Below the pieces are notes generated by a model that worked only from the letters and a program-made list of their open reading frames with translations, searched no databases and was not told the origin of the DNA. Below, one piece after another: positions 1 through 45,624 of a DNA stretch of 45,624 bases. Source of the DNA: a virus; the UHGV virus genome UHGV-0133287. The stretch is one strand, 5' to 3'. Position 1 is the stretch's first letter, and each line of letters opens with the position of its first letter. A program made the translations under genes and the position numbers.

Positions 1-1501
1 TTTTAAATCCAATCTTCGCCAAGTCAGTATTTCGAATCCAGGCAAGGATTGAGTCATTTTCAAAAGTAAGCCCACCGGACAAAGTATCGCCATTTTTTTG
101 CACGGCGTTACCAGCCCTGTTTACCGTTTCCTGTAAACCGAGGTATTCGATAACGGCGGCAACGGTCGATTTCGCAAGAATATCCCGCCCGACTTTTGTC
201 AGAGTTGCCAGGCTGGCGACATCATTCCCCGTAAAATACGGAAACCTGTCTGCCGCAGTAGCAAGCCCGGCCAGCGCCGTCAGGGTGGCATCTTTCGGTT
301 GCTTACCCGCAAGCGCGTTAGTCATGGTGGTCGCAAAATTCGGGTCGTTTCCCAGCGCCGCCGCTAACTCGTTCAGCGTATTCAGTGCGTCAGGTGACGA
401 ATCTACAAGGGCGGCAATCGCAGCCATAACATAAGCCGTGCTTGCGATCTGAGTATTGTTAGTACCTTTTGGCGCAGTTGGTGTTGTTGGTGTTCCGGTC
501 AGCGCCGGACTGTTCAGGGGCGCTTTCTTGTTCGTTTCATCCATTACCACCTTTACAGCTTTCGATGTCGCGGCCAGTGTTTCAGACGTGCTGTTGGTGG
601 CACTACTGAGCTGAGTTATTCCCCTTACAGTCAGTGAAGCTACAGGCACATTTGTTATCTGCTCCCACGAATGCGTGTGATTGGACGGAGCCTTTCCGGC
701 CGCAAGATCATACGCTGCCTTAACAGCCTTTGGTGTTGCTGCCAGCGTTTCAGACGTGCTGTTGGTGGCACTACTGAGCTGAACAATCCCTTTTCGCGCT
801 GTGGTAGCGTCCTGTGCGGTGTATTTAGCATTAGCCAGGTCATATGCTGCCTTAACAGCCTTAGGCGTCGCAGCAAGCGTTTCAGACGCGCTATTGGTGG
901 CGCTGCTAAGTTGAACAAAGCCTTTTGAGGTTAAAGTTGCATCAGGATGATTACGTGATTGCTCATGTTTCACAATGGCTTGCTTAAGCCGTTTTGCTGA
1001 AACAGCAAGGGAATCATCTGTACCTGCATCAATTTCTTGTTCATTAGCAAATCTTGCCACCCCAACAACAGTTTCGGTCGCGGGAGGATTAATAAACTCA
1101 ATATCACCAAATGTAATATTTTTAGTATCAAGAGTTTTAATTGCTATATCACTTGATATTAAAGCGATAGTAGATGATGCTTTATTTATTATTGCTTGTT
1201 CTTGTGAGTATACAGCAAACAACGTACCCTTATTCGTATACAATCCTATTGTATGGACAACATACTCATCTTTACTATCATCCTTCGCTGTTACATGAAT
1301 TGTATCAGGGGAAACAACTTTGCCACCTATTGTGGTAAGTCGTTTTATTTCGTTTGTTATATTTGTTTGTGAAGTTGACGTGACATAATATCTACTACCT
1401 AAACCAACAGAAACAATCTCAACTTTATTTGTTCCTGTTTTGTTGGCATTAACCAGCTCCTGACGCCCGGCGTCAGTCATCGTAAATAATAATTTACTCA
1501 C
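1..1501 (-). CDS. tail fibre protein, constant N-terminal part (3' end runs off window start)
   Basis: Minus-strand ORF absent from the ORF track because it has no in-window stop. Start is GTG 1501 (AAGGA 7 nt upstream) or ATG 1480. My translation contains three tandem ~50-aa repeats GIVQLSSATNS(T/A)SETLAATPKAVKAAYDLA, typical of phage tail-fibre repeat domains. It follows the baseplate I-like gene. Confidence 0.75.
   Translation of the reverse strand, partial: MSKLLFTMTDAGRQELVNANKTGTNKVEIVSVGLGSRYYVTSTSQTNITNEIKRLTTIGGKVVSPDTIHVTAKDDSKDEYVVHTIGLYTNKGTLFAVYSQEQAIINKASSTIALISSDIAIKTLDTKNITFGDIEFINPPATETVVGVARFANEQEIDAGTDDSLAVSAKRLKQAIVKHEQSRNHPDATLTSKGFVQLSSATNSASETLAATPKAVKAAYDLANAKYTAQDATTARKGIVQLSSATNSTSETLAATPKAVKAAYDLAAGKAPSNHTHSWEQITNVPVASLTVRGITQLSSATNSTSETLAATSKAVKVVMDETNKKAPLNSPALTGTPTTPTAPKGTNNTQIASTAYVMAAIAALVDSSPDALNTLNELAAALGNDPNFATTMTNALAGKQPKDATLTALAGLATAADRFPYFTGNDVASLATLTKVGRDILAKSTVAAVIEYLGLQETVNRAGNAVQKNGDTLSGGLTFENDSILAWIRNTDLAKIGFK
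125..150. other. gix/hix-like invertase crossover site inside the tail-fibre gene
   Basis: Minus-strand sequence TCGAATACC-TC-GGTTTACAGGAA resembles the Mu gix half-sites as I recall them. A similar copy in inverted orientation lies at 45367-45392 next to the invertase gene. It encodes LGLQET in the fibre reading frame. Confidence 0.5.
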
Positions 1502-19921: not shown

Positions 19922-20478
19922 TTTTTAACCGCCATAACACAACAGGTTAAAGAAAACTGTTTAACTTATTGATACTAAAAGAGAAAAATGACGATCTTTT
20001 TACTCATAAAAAATCACACAAACCAGCATAATCATCTGATTTTATTAAGTTTTTATAAGTAAAAAGGATCTTGATATGGTGTTTTGGTTAAAAGATTGGA
20101 TGTATTTGCATGATTTATAACGATTTTTATCAAAACAGCCTTACATTGGTTAAAGATCTGCGCGTATCTTGATGATCTAAAAGAAAATTCTCTACTTTCT
20201 TTTCACCATCACAAGCACAGCAAAAAATCACGTTTTCCCGATGTTTTTCAATGAGATGAGTAAATTTCTTTTACCGAAACTTTTAACCTAACTTTTTTCA
20301 CGTTTAGCTAGCCGAACATCGGGGTTCGAATGACCCGCATCCAACGCTTTTGGCCAGAAGGACCCAATTCTGCCGGACGATGAAACGATGCTCGTGCTCC
20401 CCCACAGACAGCCAGCGAGCGACGCTACAGAACACAGTGAATACACTCTGCATAACAACACCATCAACCACACGATGA

Positions 20479-25260: not shown

Positions 25261-25377
25261 CGGGTTATCTCCGGTTTAACCAGGGCGGGTATCGCTCGGT
25301 TTCGGGTATAACCATAGGAAATTTTTTCCCATCCGTAAAGCGCTTTTTATATAAATCTATAATTATATAATTCTATG
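25261..25377 (-). promoter_or_regulatory. conserved promoter/leader cassette, copy A
   Basis: About 115 bp nearly identical to 32437-32557 and 41314-41430. In the minus-strand sense it carries an AT-rich palindromic block (TATATAATTATAGATTTATATAAA), a TTTAC(G/A)-N17-TATGGT promoter-like pair, then a ~45-nt leader ending GGAGATAACCCG-ATG. Confidence 0.5.
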
Positions 25378-26267: not shown

Positions 26268-26343
26268 TGGTGGCCCCTACCGGATTTGAACCGATGACCG
26301 TGCGATTATGAGTCGCCTGCTCTAACCACTGAGCTAAGGGGCC
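26268..26343 (-). tRNA. tRNA with CAU anticodon (Met or lysidine-type Ile2)
   Basis: 76-nt minus-strand sequence GGCCCCTTAGCTCAGTGGTTAGAGCAGGCGACTCATAATCGCACGGTCATCGGTTCAAATCCGGTAGGGGCCACCA folds by hand into a cloverleaf: 7-bp acceptor stem, GCTC/GAGC D-stem, CUCAUAA anticodon loop, TTCAAAT T-loop, encoded CCA. The 5' half resembles E. coli ileX as I recall it. Confidence 0.8.
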
Positions 26344-26512
26344 ATATTTGATTTGTTTGTCTGGTGTGGCGCCGCGCACGAAAATCCCAGCCAATAAATT
26401 CAGGATTTTTGGGCGCGGCGGCATATCAGACAAACATGGTTGATGCGTGCGCCCATGAGAAAAGCGCATAGAATGTTGTAACTATATATTTATATAATTA
26501 TAGAAATATATA

Positions 26513-28309: not shown

Positions 28310-28585
28310 TCACAGTAGTGCAGAAAAGAATAGCGGCTTAACTGCTTTCCTCACCTCACTAGCATACATCCCCGCAGCTATCTCAGTTGTGAACAAACGC
28401 CCTCCAACTAGCCATGCAACAGGTGCAGATGCCAGGGATGCCAATGCAATTTCATCGGTAGCAAGCTCTCTTTCAAGATACTCACGAAATCCGGGGTTAA
28501 TAGTTACCGTATCCAACATTCTCTGGCGCGCCACCTTACGTTCACGAATATGGGCGATCAATTGCTCTTTGGTACAAGTAGCCAC
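28310..28585 (-). CDS. hypothetical protein
   Basis: 91-aa ORF upstream of the pre-holin terminator. Confidence 0.3.
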   Translation of the reverse strand: MATCTKEQLIAHIRERKVARQRMLDTVTINPGFREYLERELATDEIALASLASAPVAWLVGGRLFTTEIAAGMYASEVRKAVKPLFFSALL

Positions 28586-28588
28586 AGG

Positions 28589-29089
28589 TTATCCCTTCCC
28601 ATCTTTGACTGTGCGATCAGCTTTTTCGCGTTTATGGCTCTCATAAAACCATCGGTGAAGCTCCATTAGCTCTTTATCAATAGGCTCATATTCACGGTCA
28701 AAATATGCCTGAGCATCTTTTTCATCTTCACTCGGTAACTCACCAGGACCAAACAAAGTGTTATAAATCCACATCAGTGCATTTTCTGCATTACCAGTTT
28801 CTCTCCATTCAATAATGGCAGCACGCATAACCAGGAGGTTTTTGCCAAAGAACAGATCGAGTTCTTTAAATCGCTTACGAATATATTCGTTTTCGCCTTC
28901 AAGAGCTGCGATGCGCTTATCTTTGCCTTCCTGCTCGTCCAGTAGTGCCAGCATAGCCTCTGGAGTTGCTAAATCCTGCCAGTTATCTGACGTGTCGCTT
29001 GCAGTTCGCAGCATAATTTCTTCTTCTGCTGCCTCACGCAGCGCCAGTGTGTCGATGTTGCTCATTGTGCCTCCTCGATTTCGTCCCAT
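28589..29089 (-). CDS. hypothetical protein (Ea22/Ead-like N-terminus)
   Basis: 166-aa ORF; internal start MSNIDTLALREAAEEE... shares its N-terminal pattern with 29292-29777. Confidence 0.35.
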   Translation of the reverse strand: MGRNRGGTMSNIDTLALREAAEEEIMLRTASDTSDNWQDLATPEAMLALLDEQEGKDKRIAALEGENEYIRKRFKELDLFFGKNLLVMRAAIIEWRETGNAENALMWIYNTLFGPGELPSEDEKDAQAYFDREYEPIDKELMELHRWFYESHKREKADRTVKDGKG

Positions 29090-29295
29090 TCCACCCAGGC
29101 ATTCTCTCCATCAGCATCGATTTCACCTTTGTGACCGCATTTGGAACAGACGGCCTCATCACCCGCCCACAAAGAATCTTTGGTTACCGACCATCCTGTT
29201 ACCTTGGCTTTGCCGTGCTGGCACTTAGGGCAATCATCAAGCCATTCGACTTCGACCGTTAACGGACCAAATCCATGTTCAGTTCGGATGCTCAT
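29062..29295 (-). CDS. small zinc-ribbon protein
   Basis: 77-aa ORF with CPKC...CSKC cysteine pairs. Confidence 0.35.
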   Translation of the reverse strand: MSIRTEHGFGPLTVEVEWLDDCPKCQHGKAKVTGWSVTKDSLWAGDEAVCSKCGHKGEIDADGENAWVEWDEIEEAQ

Positions 29296-29777
29296 AACTG
29301 AACTCCTTTGCGAATCTGGGCGGCTAACTCGTCACATATGTGCGTCAAAGAGCAAAGTTTGATTGATGGATGTTCTCGCATCATCTCTACCCCCTGTGCC
29401 CGCACTTCAGACAGGAAAGCATCAGTGGCTGGCATATTTCCTGTTGCCTTCATGGCCTCCAAAATAACCAGAACGCCATCTCTCCCAATCTCCTCACAGA
29501 TAACCTCGGTGCTGTCGCCAACAACATCGCAAAATGCCTGAACTGCTTTACGAGCCAGCTCACTCTCCGCCGACAGCGCCGCGAGATTAGTCTCAAGCTC
29601 TGCAATTCGGCACATTGCATCAATATTTGTGTCCTCCAGCCGCTTAATTTCATCCAGTAGCGCCAGCACAACCTGCGGTGTGACCTTCATACGAAACGCA
29701 AGCAATTTTTGCGGCGTTGCCACGACTTTTATTGCTTCTGCTGCCTCACGCAGTGCCTGGTAATTAATTTCGCTCAC
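29292..29777 (-). CDS. hypothetical protein (Ea22/Ead-like N-terminus)
   Basis: 161-aa ORF opening MSEINYQALREAAEAI..., a paralogous N-terminus to 28589-29089. Confidence 0.35.
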   Translation of the reverse strand: MSEINYQALREAAEAIKVVATPQKLLAFRMKVTPQVVLALLDEIKRLEDTNIDAMCRIAELETNLAALSAESELARKAVQAFCDVVGDSTEVICEEIGRDGVLVILEAMKATGNMPATDAFLSEVRAQGVEMMREHPSIKLCSLTHICDELAAQIRKGVQL

Positions 29778-30463
29778 TGGTTGCCCTCCTGAATACGCTT
29801 AAACTCAATTACCCATACCCACGGGTTAGATAGCCAGTTATCCTGCCCGTAAATACCGCGCCAGATATCACCAAAGCCAACGCGATAAACAGCTTCCGGC
29901 GGTGTAATCTTGTACGTCGCCGGAGATGCGCCTTCCGCTTTAGCATCTGCCTCGCTCATGTCATGCAGCCGTTCCACACGCACGTCGGTAATTTCCAGCA
30001 AAATACGCGAAGCCCAGCGCGGCATGTGAATTGATGGACGCCACCCGCCATCAAACTTTTCATTCACAGTGTGAGGTTTCCAGTCGGCATCATCGGGTAT
30101 CGACCATAAGCCGTAATCACCCGGCTTTTGCTCACAACTGGCCCGATAAATCCTTGCTGCGTTCTTCTCATCGCCACGACAAAGGTTGTCGTTCCAGTCC
30201 ACACTGCAACCATCCTCATTGCCTAATATCGCCCACGCCTCACGGACCCATATGCGATCACCAACGTTACCGAACGGGCATAAACCATGTTCAGGTGCAT
30301 CCATAACGTGGGTATAGACACCATTGCGTTTCTTTGTCGGTTTACGGATAACCAGGCAGTTATCGGCCCTGACATTTTTTACAGGTCGGCGAGTCTGCGT
30401 CTTCCTTCCTTCGAGGATGGCCCTAACCATATCGTCATTAAAAACAACACCACGTTCTTTCAT
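29774..30463 (-). CDS. ASCH/PUA-like domain protein
   Basis: 229-aa ORF with N-terminal AILEGRKTQTRRP and C-terminal WVWVIEFKRI, resembling ASCH-domain proteins such as YqfB. Confidence 0.4.
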   Translation of the reverse strand: MKERGVVFNDDMVRAILEGRKTQTRRPVKNVRADNCLVIRKPTKKRNGVYTHVMDAPEHGLCPFGNVGDRIWVREAWAILGNEDGCSVDWNDNLCRGDEKNAARIYRASCEQKPGDYGLWSIPDDADWKPHTVNEKFDGGWRPSIHMPRWASRILLEITDVRVERLHDMSEADAKAEGASPATYKITPPEAVYRVGFGDIWRGIYGQDNWLSNPWVWVIEFKRIQEGNQ

Positions 30464-36389: not shown

Positions 36390-37058
36390 ATGGAGTCTCG
36401 ACAAATGACTATCTCTGTAGGTATTTTCAACGGAAAAGGCGGCGTAACCAAATCAACAATTGCCCGTGCTTTAGCAGTTGCTTATGCAAAGGCTGGCTGG
36501 AATGTATGCCTGATCGATATGGATGTGCTTAACGGAACGGTAACGCGTTGGGTACAACGCAGAATGGCCAACAATATCGAACCAGCAATCGCGGCGCAGC
36601 CGTGCGGCACACCATCACAAGTCCAGAAAATCATCGAATCAGAAGTATACGACCTGGTTATCGTCGATGGCGGTGCCTACGCATCTGAATCAGTACCGAA
36701 GCTATCTGAATTTCTGGATATGGTTATTTTGCCAACCCGATTCTCTACCGATGACCTGGAAACCACCGTTAACACTGCTCACGGCATCGTTAAAAAGGGT
36801 GTACCAATCAAGAAAATTTGCATGGTGTTTTCCGGCGCGGCTGAAAACGAAGCTGACTATATTGAAGCCCAAGAGTACCTGGCTAATACGCCATACTTTG
36901 TTGTCGATAAGTACATTCCCCACAAGCCAGCTCTGAGCAAAGCTCAGGATAAGGGCTTAAGCCTCATTGAGTGCTCATACGTTGCACCACGCAAAAAGGC
37001 AGACGACGTTATTCAGGGGATTATCAACCAGCTTGAGGCTCTGACTACTGCCGCGTAA
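36390..37058 (+). CDS. parA: ParA-family partition ATPase (small ParF-like)
   Basis: 222-aa ORF with a deviant Walker A (GKGGVTKST). Alternative start at 36405 (MTISVG...). Confidence 0.8.
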   Translation: MESRQMTISVGIFNGKGGVTKSTIARALAVAYAKAGWNVCLIDMDVLNGTVTRWVQRRMANNIEPAIAAQPCGTPSQVQKIIESEVYDLVIVDGGAYASESVPKLSEFLDMVILPTRFSTDDLETTVNTAHGIVKKGVPIKKICMVFSGAAENEADYIEAQEYLANTPYFVVDKYIPHKPALSKAQDKGLSLIECSYVAPRKKADDVIQGIINQLEALTTAA

Positions 37059-41476: not shown

Positions 41477-41776
41477 TCAGATGTTAAACGCTATTCTTTT
41501 TCCTGTGGGAAGCTCAACATCCAGGCTTAATTTGCCTCCCATAGCTTCAACGTAACGCTTTAATGTCGCCAGCTTTAAATCATTTCCGCGCTGCTCCAAC
41601 TTTGTTACTGCTGGCTGACTAATACCCATCGCCTCAGCAACCTGTTTTTGTGATAACTGGAGTTCTTCACGCATCATCTGCAAGCCGACCTCAAGAATCA
41701 TCTCATCTGCCATTTCTTTAATTCGCGCCTGGCTTTCCGGTGAACGGCTGGCAATCACCTCATCTAATGTTCTCAT
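41477..41776 (-). CDS. HTH-type antitoxin (HigA/XRE-like)
   Basis: 99-aa ORF with HTH LSQKQVAEAMGISQPAVTKLEQ; start overlaps the upstream toxin-like gene stop. Confidence 0.55.
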   Translation of the reverse strand: MRTLDEVIASRSPESQARIKEMADEMILEVGLQMMREELQLSQKQVAEAMGISQPAVTKLEQRGNDLKLATLKRYVEAMGGKLSLDVELPTGKRIAFNI

Positions 41777-42129
41777 TACTTGCTCTCCAGTGTGTTCAGA
41801 TGTGCTGCAAACTCATCCTCAGCTATACGCACCAGTTTTTTATAAAACCGCTTATCGTTACTTTTGTCTCCTGCACAAAGAACGATAGCCCGGCGAATCG
41901 GATCGAACGCATAAAAGGCTCTTATAGGACGGCCAGAAAACTGAACGCGAAGCTCTTTCATATTTTTGTACCGAGAACCTTTTACGGTATCGGCATATGG
42001 CCTGGGTAACTCAGGCCCGTAAACCTGTAGATTTTTCAAATCAGCCAAAACCTTTTCCTGAAGAGCGTCTTCTTGCTCATTTAGCCAGTCGTCAAATCGC
42101 TGGCTAAAAAGTACCGTCCACATGATCAA
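41776..42129 (-). CDS. RelE/ParE-superfamily toxin (Gp49/HigB-like)
   Basis: 117-aa ORF upstream of and overlapping the HTH gene, the toxin-first order of HigB-HigA-type modules; sequence pattern resembles Gp49-like killer proteins. Confidence 0.5.
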   Translation of the reverse strand: MIMWTVLFSQRFDDWLNEQEDALQEKVLADLKNLQVYGPELPRPYADTVKGSRYKNMKELRVQFSGRPIRAFYAFDPIRRAIVLCAGDKSNDKRFYKKLVRIAEDEFAAHLNTLESK

Positions 42130-43585: not shown

Positions 43586-44563
43586 TTAATGTTGGAGTGA
43601 TTTCCAAGTCTTTCTTAACCTGTTATAACGCTGCTCAACGAGGGATCGTAAATATGCAAGGTCAGCTCCAGGATACATGCCATCAGCAAATTCCTGGCTA
43701 ACCTCTCTAGTGATTTGATGACGAAGTTCGGCCTCTCCCTTTTCCCGAACAAGACGCGCAGCTCTCTCCGCTGCTTTCTGTTTTGCCTTTATCTCTCTGG
43801 CCGTCTTCCTCTGACGCCATACATTCTCCATCTGCTCCTGAATAACAATACGCTTATAATCAGCCTCCGTTATCGCTTTTTTAAGCCGTTCGCTATTCTT
43901 CGCATTGAAGTAATTAAGTTTCTGGCTAACCGCACGTCTCCATGCTTGTTCAGTAATACCAACGGTTTCCAGCAGTTGATCACGAATCTCTATTTTCGCT
44001 GGCCAATACTGTTTATTCACCCGATCCCAGCGACGTTCATAATCAATAAAACCTAACGCTTTCAGTTGCGACAACGCCCTTGTACAGCGCGTTATAGACT
44101 TGTTCCCAGCTTCGGATACGGTAGACAGACCGCAAAAATCAGCCAACGCCTCAGCACTGGCCAGAACCCGCTTAGAAATGATGTTTACATGGTGCAAAAT
44201 CGCAGCAATCACAGCATTAATCGCCCGACGACGATGCTCGTTTATCCGGCGTTTCCGCTCTGACGGTTGATTAACGTAGAACGCAACCTCACACGTAAGA
44301 TCACGACCATTAATGCGCTGTAAAGCATCAGATAACACCAGCGGCAGCTTGTGCGTATGGTGCTTTGGAGGCTGGAACTCCGGCGACAAATTACAAACGT
44401 AAGCTGAACGTAGAGACGGCATTGGTCTATCCATATGTTCGCTCTTGCGTCCACGGAAAACCAACGTATAATGGGAGTTGTCGAGGCGCCCATGGTTAAT
44501 TGTTGGTTTTCCGTGGATGTCGCAAGAAGCCCGCAGATTTATCTGCGGGCTTTTTGTTTCCAT
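43586..44563 (-). CDS. repA: replication initiator RepA (IncFII RepA1-like)
   Basis: The central region (GLSTVSEAGNKSITRCTRALSQLKALGFIDYE) resembles IncFII RepA1 (...SITRATRALTFLSELGLITYQTEYD...) as I recall it. The true start may be the internal ATG at 44434 (MDRPMPSL, about 283 aa), because the first 43 codons overlap a putative antisense RNA and hairpin. Confidence 0.75.
   Translation of the reverse strand: METKSPQINLRASCDIHGKPTINHGRLDNSHYTLVFRGRKSEHMDRPMPSLRSAYVCNLSPEFQPPKHHTHKLPLVLSDALQRINGRDLTCEVAFYVNQPSERKRRINEHRRRAINAVIAAILHHVNIISKRVLASAEALADFCGLSTVSEAGNKSITRCTRALSQLKALGFIDYERRWDRVNKQYWPAKIEIRDQLLETVGITEQAWRRAVSQKLNYFNAKNSERLKKAITEADYKRIVIQEQMENVWRQRKTAREIKAKQKAAERAARLVREKGEAELRHQITREVSQEFADGMYPGADLAYLRSLVEQRYNRLRKTWKSLQH
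44479..44560 (+). ncRNA. candidate CopA-like antisense RNA to the repA leader
   Basis: Plus-strand promoter -35 TTGCGT (44445-44450), 16-bp spacer, -10 TATAAT (44467-44472), then about 80 nt ending in a perfect 12-bp hairpin AAGCCCGCAGAT-TT-ATCTGCGGGCTT plus TTTGTTT (44527-44560), antisense to the repA 5' region. Confidence 0.5.
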
Positions 44564-44744: not shown

Positions 44745-45299
44745 TCAATGATTCCCAGCCGGAAACCTGCGGTAAAGCGTGGATAAGGTAACATCGAAGA
44801 TAATCGCTATCCGCTTACGTGAAACACCATTCGCAATAAGCCTTCCGATCTGTTCCCATTGCTCTGGTGCCAGCTTTGAGCGGCGTCCTCCTATCCTGCC
44901 GTTAGCCCTTGCCACCGCCAATCCTGCACGCGTTCTTTCAATCATATTTTCCCGCTCCATCTCTGCGACTGCACTCAGCATCGTGTAGGCAAAGCGGCCA
45001 ATTGAAGTGCTAATTTTTATCCCTTCCGTAATCGAAATAAACTCAATGTCGTTTGATAAAAAATGGTTAAGTAAATCAACAAGATGAATCAGAGAACGCC
45101 CCATTCGGTCCAGCTTCCAGACAATAACCGTATCGCCCGGTCGTAACACCTTCAGTAGCTTATCAAGTCCTGGTCGTTTTGATTTAGCACCGGATATTTT
45201 ATCTTCAAAAATCCGGTCACATCCTGAACTCCTGAGCGCCTCCAGTTGTAATTCCAAATTCTGGTCAAAAGTTGACACCCTCGCATAACCATATTGCAT
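44745..45299 (-). CDS. serine recombinase, DNA invertase (Gin/Hin/Cin/Pin family)
   Basis: 184-aa ORF opening MQYGYARVSTFDQNLELQLEAL..., with the conserved catalytic Ser region and a C-terminal HTH; strongly resembles Gin. Confidence 0.85.
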   Translation of the reverse strand: MQYGYARVSTFDQNLELQLEALRSSGCDRIFEDKISGAKSKRPGLDKLLKVLRPGDTVIVWKLDRMGRSLIHLVDLLNHFLSNDIEFISITEGIKISTSIGRFAYTMLSAVAEMERENMIERTRAGLAVARANGRIGGRRSKLAPEQWEQIGRLIANGVSRKRIAIIFDVTLSTLYRRFPAGNH

Positions 45300-45308
45300 A
45301 CTTTCTAA

Positions 45309-45624
45309 ACCACGATTGTTGCTAAAAGCGGGAAAAAATATCGTTCAGACGACACAGAGGCAATTCGCAAAAACCTCGGTTTGCAGGAAACGATAAACAA
45401 GGCTTCTGGCGCATTACAGAAAAACCAGAACGGCGCAGATATTCCTGGAAAAGATACCTTCACCAAAAATATTGGTGCCTGCCGCGCATATAGCGCATGG
45501 GTGGATATTGGTGGCGATAGTCAGGTCTGGACAACTGCGCAATTTATTTCGTGGCTGGAGAGTCAGGGGGCATTTAACCATCCTTACTGGATGTGCAAAG
45601 GCTCATGGGCTTATGCAAATAATA
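45309..45624 (+). CDS. alternative tail-fibre C-terminal segment, start-less (runs off window end)
   Basis: Open frame with no ATG/GTG start from the stop at 45306-45308 to the window end; encodes ...AIRKNLGLQETINKASGALQKN..., paralleling the ...EYLGLQETVNRAGNAVQKN... junction of the fibre gene at the window start on the opposite strand. Confidence 0.55.
45367..45392. other. gix/hix-like invertase crossover site
   Basis: GCAAAAACC-TC-GGTTTGCAGGAA, an inverted copy of the 125-150 site; 68 bp from the invertase start codon. Confidence 0.5.

Follow-up and report, generated by a model that had tools for sequence, protein, structure and literature searches.

The window, that is, the whole stretch of 45,624 nt analysed here (UHGV virus genome UHGV-0133287), begins within a tail-fibre gene and ends within the first part of a second fibre cassette (Table 1). 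The fibre gene at the left end is a single open frame on the minus strand, running from its start codon to the window edge. Its constant part (Sc) shares operon and strand with the genes for baseplate J and tail protein I, and matches the Pfam family Phage_fiber_2 over three stretches (E = 1.7e-58); nt 550–926 hold diverged tandem copies of a ~132-nt unit, 80–89% identical, which correspond to the Phage_fiber_2 repeats. The start of the variable tip (Sv) is 98% identical to that of Yersinia phage vB_YpM_41, where the gene runs ~730 nt further and is followed by a chaperone gene. At the right end lies the start of an alternative tip (Sv') that reads IRKN-LGLQETINKASGALQKNQNG... and has an in-frame stop 19 codons upstream. 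Since this cassette also lacks a start codon, it is silent, and it would become fused in frame upon inversion. Both frames run off the window, the expressed tip to the left and the silent one to the right, as a preliminary description of this DNA had stated.

Table 1. Features of the fibre region and of the plasmid replication and partition functions, with positions in the window.
Feature	Position (nt)	Strand	Remarks
Expressed variable fibre tip (Sv), first ~42 codons	1–127	-	P2 H/G-like cassette type; cut by left edge
Left crossover site, gix-like 12-2-12	128–153		Core GA 140–141; constant/variable junction of fibre gene
Constant part (Sc) of tail-fibre gene	154–1501	-	Start GTG 1501 or ATG 1480; internal fibre repeats
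ParA	36390–37058	+	CbiA, ParA and MipZ matches
RepA, plasmid replication initiator	43586–44563	-	Pfam IncFII_repA, E = 1.3e-43; adjoins invertase
Serine DNA invertase, Gin/Hin/Cin/Pin type	44745–45299	-	184 aa; transcribed away from invertible segment
Spacer, invertase start codon to right site	45300–45363		64 nt
Right crossover site, 26 bp	45364–45389		Core TC 45376–45377; inverted relative to left site
Silent alternative fibre tip start (Sv', Mu S'-like)	45375–45624	+	No start codon; cut by right edge

The two cassettes are bordered by a pair of sites with the architecture recognised by DNA invertases, namely two inverted 26-bp sequences, each with 12-bp half-sites around a 2-bp core (GA/TC). 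On the plus strand the left site is TTCCTGTAAACC-GA-GGTATTCGATAA and the right site TTCGCAAAAACC-TC-GGTTTGCAGGAA; when one of them is reverse-complemented they have 21 of 26 positions in common, the central dinucleotide included. A match of this quality is expected by chance ~0.00017 times per window, the next best position reaching 16/26, and the longest inverted repeat of the window (55 nt, 78%, arms at nt 93–147 and 45,370–45,424) contains the pair. A 26-mer search of the window allowing up to 3 mismatches recovered only the query site itself because its partner differs at 5 positions, and the significance of the pair was therefore calculated separately. A third site-like match at nt 29,494 was rejected, as it shares only the central eight bases (ACC-TC-GGT), lacks proper half-sites and is at chance level. 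The codon holding the core, CTC (Leu), is in the identical frame at both sites, and the minus-strand fibre frame across the left site translates as ...AAVIEYLGLQETVNRAGNAVQKNGDTL..., the peptide quoted for it previously. The preliminary description was thus right in placing matching, inverted crossover sites with the same core dinucleotide at the two window edges, while the positions it gave for them (125–150 and 45,367–45,392) are each offset by 3 nt.

Next to the right site is a gene for a serine invertase with the Pfam domains Resolvase and HTH_7. Its best match among solved structures is Gin of phage Mu (3uj3, E = 1e-61), to which it aligns without gaps over 181 aa at 55% identity. The 64-nt spacer between gene and site presumably holds the invertase promoter, judging by its position only; a simple promoter scan returned nothing convincing. 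The recombinational enhancer of such systems consists of two Fis sites, acts in cis and usually lies within the 5' part of the invertase gene. A scan with the degenerate Fis consensus gave many candidates in both the window gene and Mu gin, and no clear pair in either. According to PMC3798978, conservation of Gln151, Arg154 and Leu155 of Hin is restricted to Fis/enhancer-dependent invertases, as is that of basic residues at Hin positions 47, 48 and 51. By way of the gap-free Gin alignment, the counterparts of the first three are Q150, R153 and L154 of the window protein, while its helix B has D46, K47 and K50, so that two of the three residues are basic, Hin and Gin both having a basic residue where the window protein has D46; the mapping of Hin numbering onto Gin is ours and not that of the cited paper. 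As the enhancer itself was not located, that inversion requires Fis and an enhancer is something we infer.

The kind of replicon that carries these features was assessed by comparison with complete records. Along its full length the window is collinear, at ~98% identity, with the circular E. coli plasmid pHN68-3 (48,743 bp) and the circular Yersinia phage vB_YpM_41 (49,128 bp), and circular relatives at this level of identity include further E. coli plasmids, such as the 48,488-bp plasmid of strain ATCC 25922, and the Yersinia phages vB_YpM_39, vB_YpM_41 and vB_YpM_44. Some relatives were obtained as plaque-forming Yersinia phages, and hundreds of similar plasmids of 47–52 kb are found in E. 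coli, Yersinia and Salmonella. The circular relatives annotate the same two genes as repA and ParA, and the presence of RepA and ParA shows that the element is maintained as a plasmid. Collinearity with the annotated pHN68-3 places terminase, portal, capsid, sheath, tube, tape measure and baseplate genes in the window, the baseplate and tail genes of the family being of the P2 type. Replication and partition genes and a complete set of virion genes are therefore found together on one replicon collinear with circular plasmids, which makes the element a plasmid-prophage. Membership of the pSLy3 phage-plasmid group was considered and rejected, since pSLy3 belongs to the ~100 kb SSU5 supergroup. 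The circular form proposed for the molecule at the outset is likewise favoured by the 48.7 and 49.1 kb circular records and by the RepA/ParA pair. Among the papers of the library searched, none was found to describe the fibre switch in this ~48 kb plasmid-prophage family.

Several other features of the replicon were recorded. Nt 28,312–29,787 hold 1.5 kb of small minus-strand ORFs that are absent from pHN68-3 and vB_YpM_41; the region is shared exactly with 15 viral contigs of unrelated length (using a pattern from ~29.1 kb) and is therefore regarded as a mosaic accessory module. Two small overlapping ORFs on the minus strand (nt 41,477–42,129) are, according to the annotation of relatives, a RelE/ParE-family (HigB-like) toxin and an HTH antitoxin, and are likely to form a plasmid addiction module. 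A tRNA gene with anticodon CAT (nt 26,268–26,343, minus strand) was assigned to Met by ARAGORN, while its homologue is annotated as tRNA-Ile in pHN68-3 and as tRNA-Met in vB_YpM_41; an inverted repeat of 34 nt, with a loop of 15 nt, lies beside it (nt 26,354–26,436). Nine copies of an AT-rich 21-mer, TATAAATCTATAATTATATAA (up to 3 mismatches), are found on both strands where none is expected, at nt 25,350, 26,490, 31,316, 32,525, 32,530, 36,277, 36,350, 37,058 and 41,403. For the most part they are located in the early/plasmid half, in the gaps between listed ORFs, and many of the longest inverted repeats of the window are pairs of them. They look like dispersed operators or promoters, by analogy with the scattered C1 operators of P1.

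The part of the fibre region that lies beyond the window ends can be read in the relatives. In vB_YpM_41, window base 1 corresponds to nt 20,335 of the record and the right end of the window aligns to nt ~23,058 (BLASTn), which leaves a gap of 2,722 bp; the corresponding gap is 2,665 bp on a related metagenome scaffold (L108) after its segment has been flipped in silico. The gene order in the relatives is Sc-Sv-chaperone-chaperone(-)-Sv'(-)-invertase-RepA, the first chaperone gene being ~528 nt long and the second, convergent one ~534 nt. Ten contigs that encode the exact 184-aa invertase have this same order, with a Caudo_TAP domain in both chaperones. Two convergent fibre tips with their chaperones are present in all 15 relatives tabulated, and the whole segment lies within the stretch examined in 14 of them. 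The exception is a contig (L112) that ends before the Sc-side site and has the invertase-side site only. These comparisons agree with the preliminary proposal that a few kilobases of invertible segment, holding two convergent fibre C-termini and their chaperone genes, lie across the junction, and the content of the missing ~2.7 kb of the window is accordingly taken from the relatives as a prediction.

In the crossover sites of the relatives, the outer half-site on the invertase side is common to 15/15 relatives and that on the Sc side to 14/14 that have this site. The left site of the window is identical to the inversion site of the ATCC 25922 plasmid segment, and the right site is the same as the invertase-proximal site of nine of the 15 relatives, the remaining six varying only at the one polymorphic base of the inner half-site; both window sites are identical to those of one sequence of that plasmid, CP158444. 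These data also bear on the possibility that the unseen part contains more than two cassettes and additional crossover sites, so that inversion would be multiple, as in the Min system of p15B. In favour of this, the window does not include the middle of the segment, and cassette types and their combinations vary widely among the relatives. Only two sites with proper half-sites were found, however, in each of the 15 relatives (one within the contig in L112), the distance between them is 2.93–3.10 kb in the 13 relatives that have both sites and no insertion, and the window plus ~2.7 kb falls within the 47–52 kb size range of the family, so that an arrangement of this kind is exceedingly unlikely. 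In one relative (pZ0117EC0148-4, CP098182; L004/L106) the Tn3-family transposon Tn5403, with its own resolvase, is located within the invertible segment and splits the silent cassette.

Inversion of the simple, two-site segment is directly visible among the relatives. Several independent assemblies exist of the 48,488-bp ATCC 25922 plasmid, and two of them (CP158444 and CP009073) differ by an inversion of 3.06 kb and a few scattered base differences. The breakpoints lie inside the 26-bp sites. The one polymorphic inner half-site base (T/C, at a distance of six bases from the core) changed place together with the segment, whereas the outer half-sites kept their positions. The exchange is thereby located at or near the core, as a crossover at the central dinucleotide would predict. 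The fibre genes of this plasmid are full-length in both states (2,451 and 2,388 nt), so that either tip is fused in frame. A further record of the strain, NZ_CP032086.1, is 94,204 bp long, about twice the usual 48.5 kb, and the query is present in it in several copies; it may represent a dimer, or else an artefact of assembly connected with the existence of two orientations. Scaffold L108 encodes the identical 184-aa invertase and carries both window cassettes in the opposite state. When its 3,055 bp between the two cores were flipped in silico, both window ends aligned unbroken, with 97.5% identity over the left 1,600 nt and 98.7% over the right 1,624 nt. L106 and L108 have the identical invertase and the same cassettes in opposite orientations. 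Recombination at these sites has occurred in the relatives, which is where it was observed, as distinct from the window molecule itself.

It could still be argued that the sites in the window are fossils, and that the segment no longer inverts in this lineage because the invertase or its enhancer is inactive. Phage P2 bears on this: it shows 92.5% DNA identity to the expressed tip and chaperone (as present in vB_YpM_41), including the junction sequence, yet its one fibre tip is fixed and it is not known to carry an invertase or a second cassette. The motif alone is therefore no proof of switching. The failure of the degenerate Fis scan to locate an enhancer, and the Asp at position 46, where Hin and Gin are basic, would also fit a decayed system. 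The reading frame of the invertase is intact, however, with the catalytic Ser9 (in GYARVST) and the Q-x-x-R-L signature; the same 184-aa protein accompanies cassettes in both orientations in L106 and L108, and a plasmid with the same sites exists in both states within one strain (ATCC 25922). We consider loss of inversion in this lineage very unlikely.

The remaining question is why the window ends where it does. Its ends fall within the segment, 139 nt and 247 nt from the borders and thus not at the crossover sites, and no internal repeats or inverted repeats were found that would explain these end points. The only exact match obtained, the metagenome contig ERZ781270 NODE-102 (L102; 31,663 nt), shows 100% identity to the window over the 6.6 kb compared and begins exactly at window base 1. 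That an independent contig starts at the same base speaks for a break that recurs in assembly and against a biological end. The right-end query matched 498 chromosomal places in E. coli, and the fibre modules are also present in 77 viral contigs. Because these modules are highly identical across many other prophages, short-read assembly most probably broke off here at a module that a second prophage in the sample also carries, and both window ends would then be assembly breaks.

Searches of phage, plasmid, E. coli, viral and genome collections did not recover the flanks of the window ends, the exact window-end patterns had no match in viral contigs or species-representative genomes, and no record among E. 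coli genomes exceeded ~98.7% identity to the window; closure of the window molecule therefore rests on the ~98% identical relatives. This leaves room for another interpretation, in which the two ends are not neighbours at all, the element being integrated or linear and cut arbitrarily, with the sites coming from two separate fibre loci. Besides the missing flanks, the occurrence of motif-bearing fibre modules in many unrelated prophages, as seen in the 498 places and 77 contigs above, is in keeping with that interpretation. It is opposed by the gene content, as no chromosomal DNA or integrase was found in the 45.6 kb collinear with circular plasmids while RepA and ParA are both present, and by the truncated frames at the edges, which by order and orientation fit one 3 kb segment in every relative that could be examined. 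Separate, non-adjacent ends are for these reasons highly improbable.

The closest well-known counterpart of the switch is the G segment of phage Mu, whose gix sites read TTATCCAAAACCTCGGTTTACAGGAA and TTCCTGTAAACCGAGGTTTTGGATAA; gixL matches the left window site at 24 of 26 positions and gixR the right site at 22 of 26, with the GA core in common. The gene order is the same (constant S, Sv-U, inverted U'-Sv', invertase), the distance between site starts in Mu is 3,058 bp compared with 2.93–3.10 kb among the relatives of the window, and the chaperone genes have the same lengths as in the window's family (528 and 534 nt). From the annotated boundary of the G segment, the S' starts of Mu, D108 and SfMu share 95–97% DNA identity with the silent cassette (95% for Mu). 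In other respects the two differ. Mu is a transposable phage, whereas the switch of the window sits on a plasmid-prophage that has RepA, ParA and P2-like tail genes; the identity of the invertase to Gin is only 55%, and the expressed tip belongs with P2 H/G, not with Mu S/U.

In the C segment of P1 and P7 (Cin, cix; also in D6 and SJ46), too, tail-fibre genes are inverted on a plasmid-prophage. Between this segment, as found in P7 and D6, and the cassette and chaperone seen in vB_YpM_41, DNA identity over the Sv/U and Sv'/U' modules is 85–89%, and SJ46, a P1-like phage, has a 'pin' region with 88% DNA identity to the invertase region of the window. Phages of the P1 type differ in genome size (90–100 kb, compared with ~48 kb), and their backbone and replication genes are unrelated. 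The sharing of fibre modules among P2-, Mu- and P1-type phages is a classical mosaic. Within the ~48 kb plasmid-prophage family of E. coli and Yersinia the invertase, sites and segment are the same, while the accessory mosaic and the cassette combinations differ.

Taken together, the window very probably represents a near-complete, circular plasmid-prophage of ~48 kb that carries a fibre switch of the Mu G/P1 C type and from which ~2.7 kb are missing. The element would be a phage with a P2-like contractile tail whose genome is propagated as a circular plasmid, by way of RepA and ParA, in E. coli and its relatives, and the missing ~2.7 kb would be the middle of an invertible segment of ~3.05 kb; judging by the relatives, the window molecule itself is probably closed by such a segment. 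The 5' constant part of the fibre gene would lie outside the segment and two alternative 3' parts inside it, each with its own assembly-chaperone gene and arranged tail to tail. The Gin-like invertase is predicted to cut both 26-bp sites at the GA/TC core, rotate the ends and rejoin them. The constant part would thereby continue in frame into the other tip, which may change the receptor specificity of the progeny phage. In the state captured by the window, the P2 H-like tip would be expressed and the Mu S'-like tip silent.

The feature is a standard tail-fibre switch of the Gin/Cin type, located on a known but little-described plasmid-prophage family, and no open biological question is affected by its presence in the window. 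There is a slim chance that the unseen 2.7 kb hold extra crossover sites or a receptor-binding cassette of a new kind. The family would then be a hub in which fibre modules of the P2, Mu and P1 types are shuffled; if true, this could explain those members that plate on Yersinia pestis yet reside in E. coli. The more immediate consequences concern annotation. Contigs of such elements tend to stop within the invertible fibre segment, and the window would be better described as a replicon of ~48.3 kb, circular and with a single gap, than as a linear genome in which genes are truncated. Its fibre gene would be annotated as one state of a two-state host-range switch.
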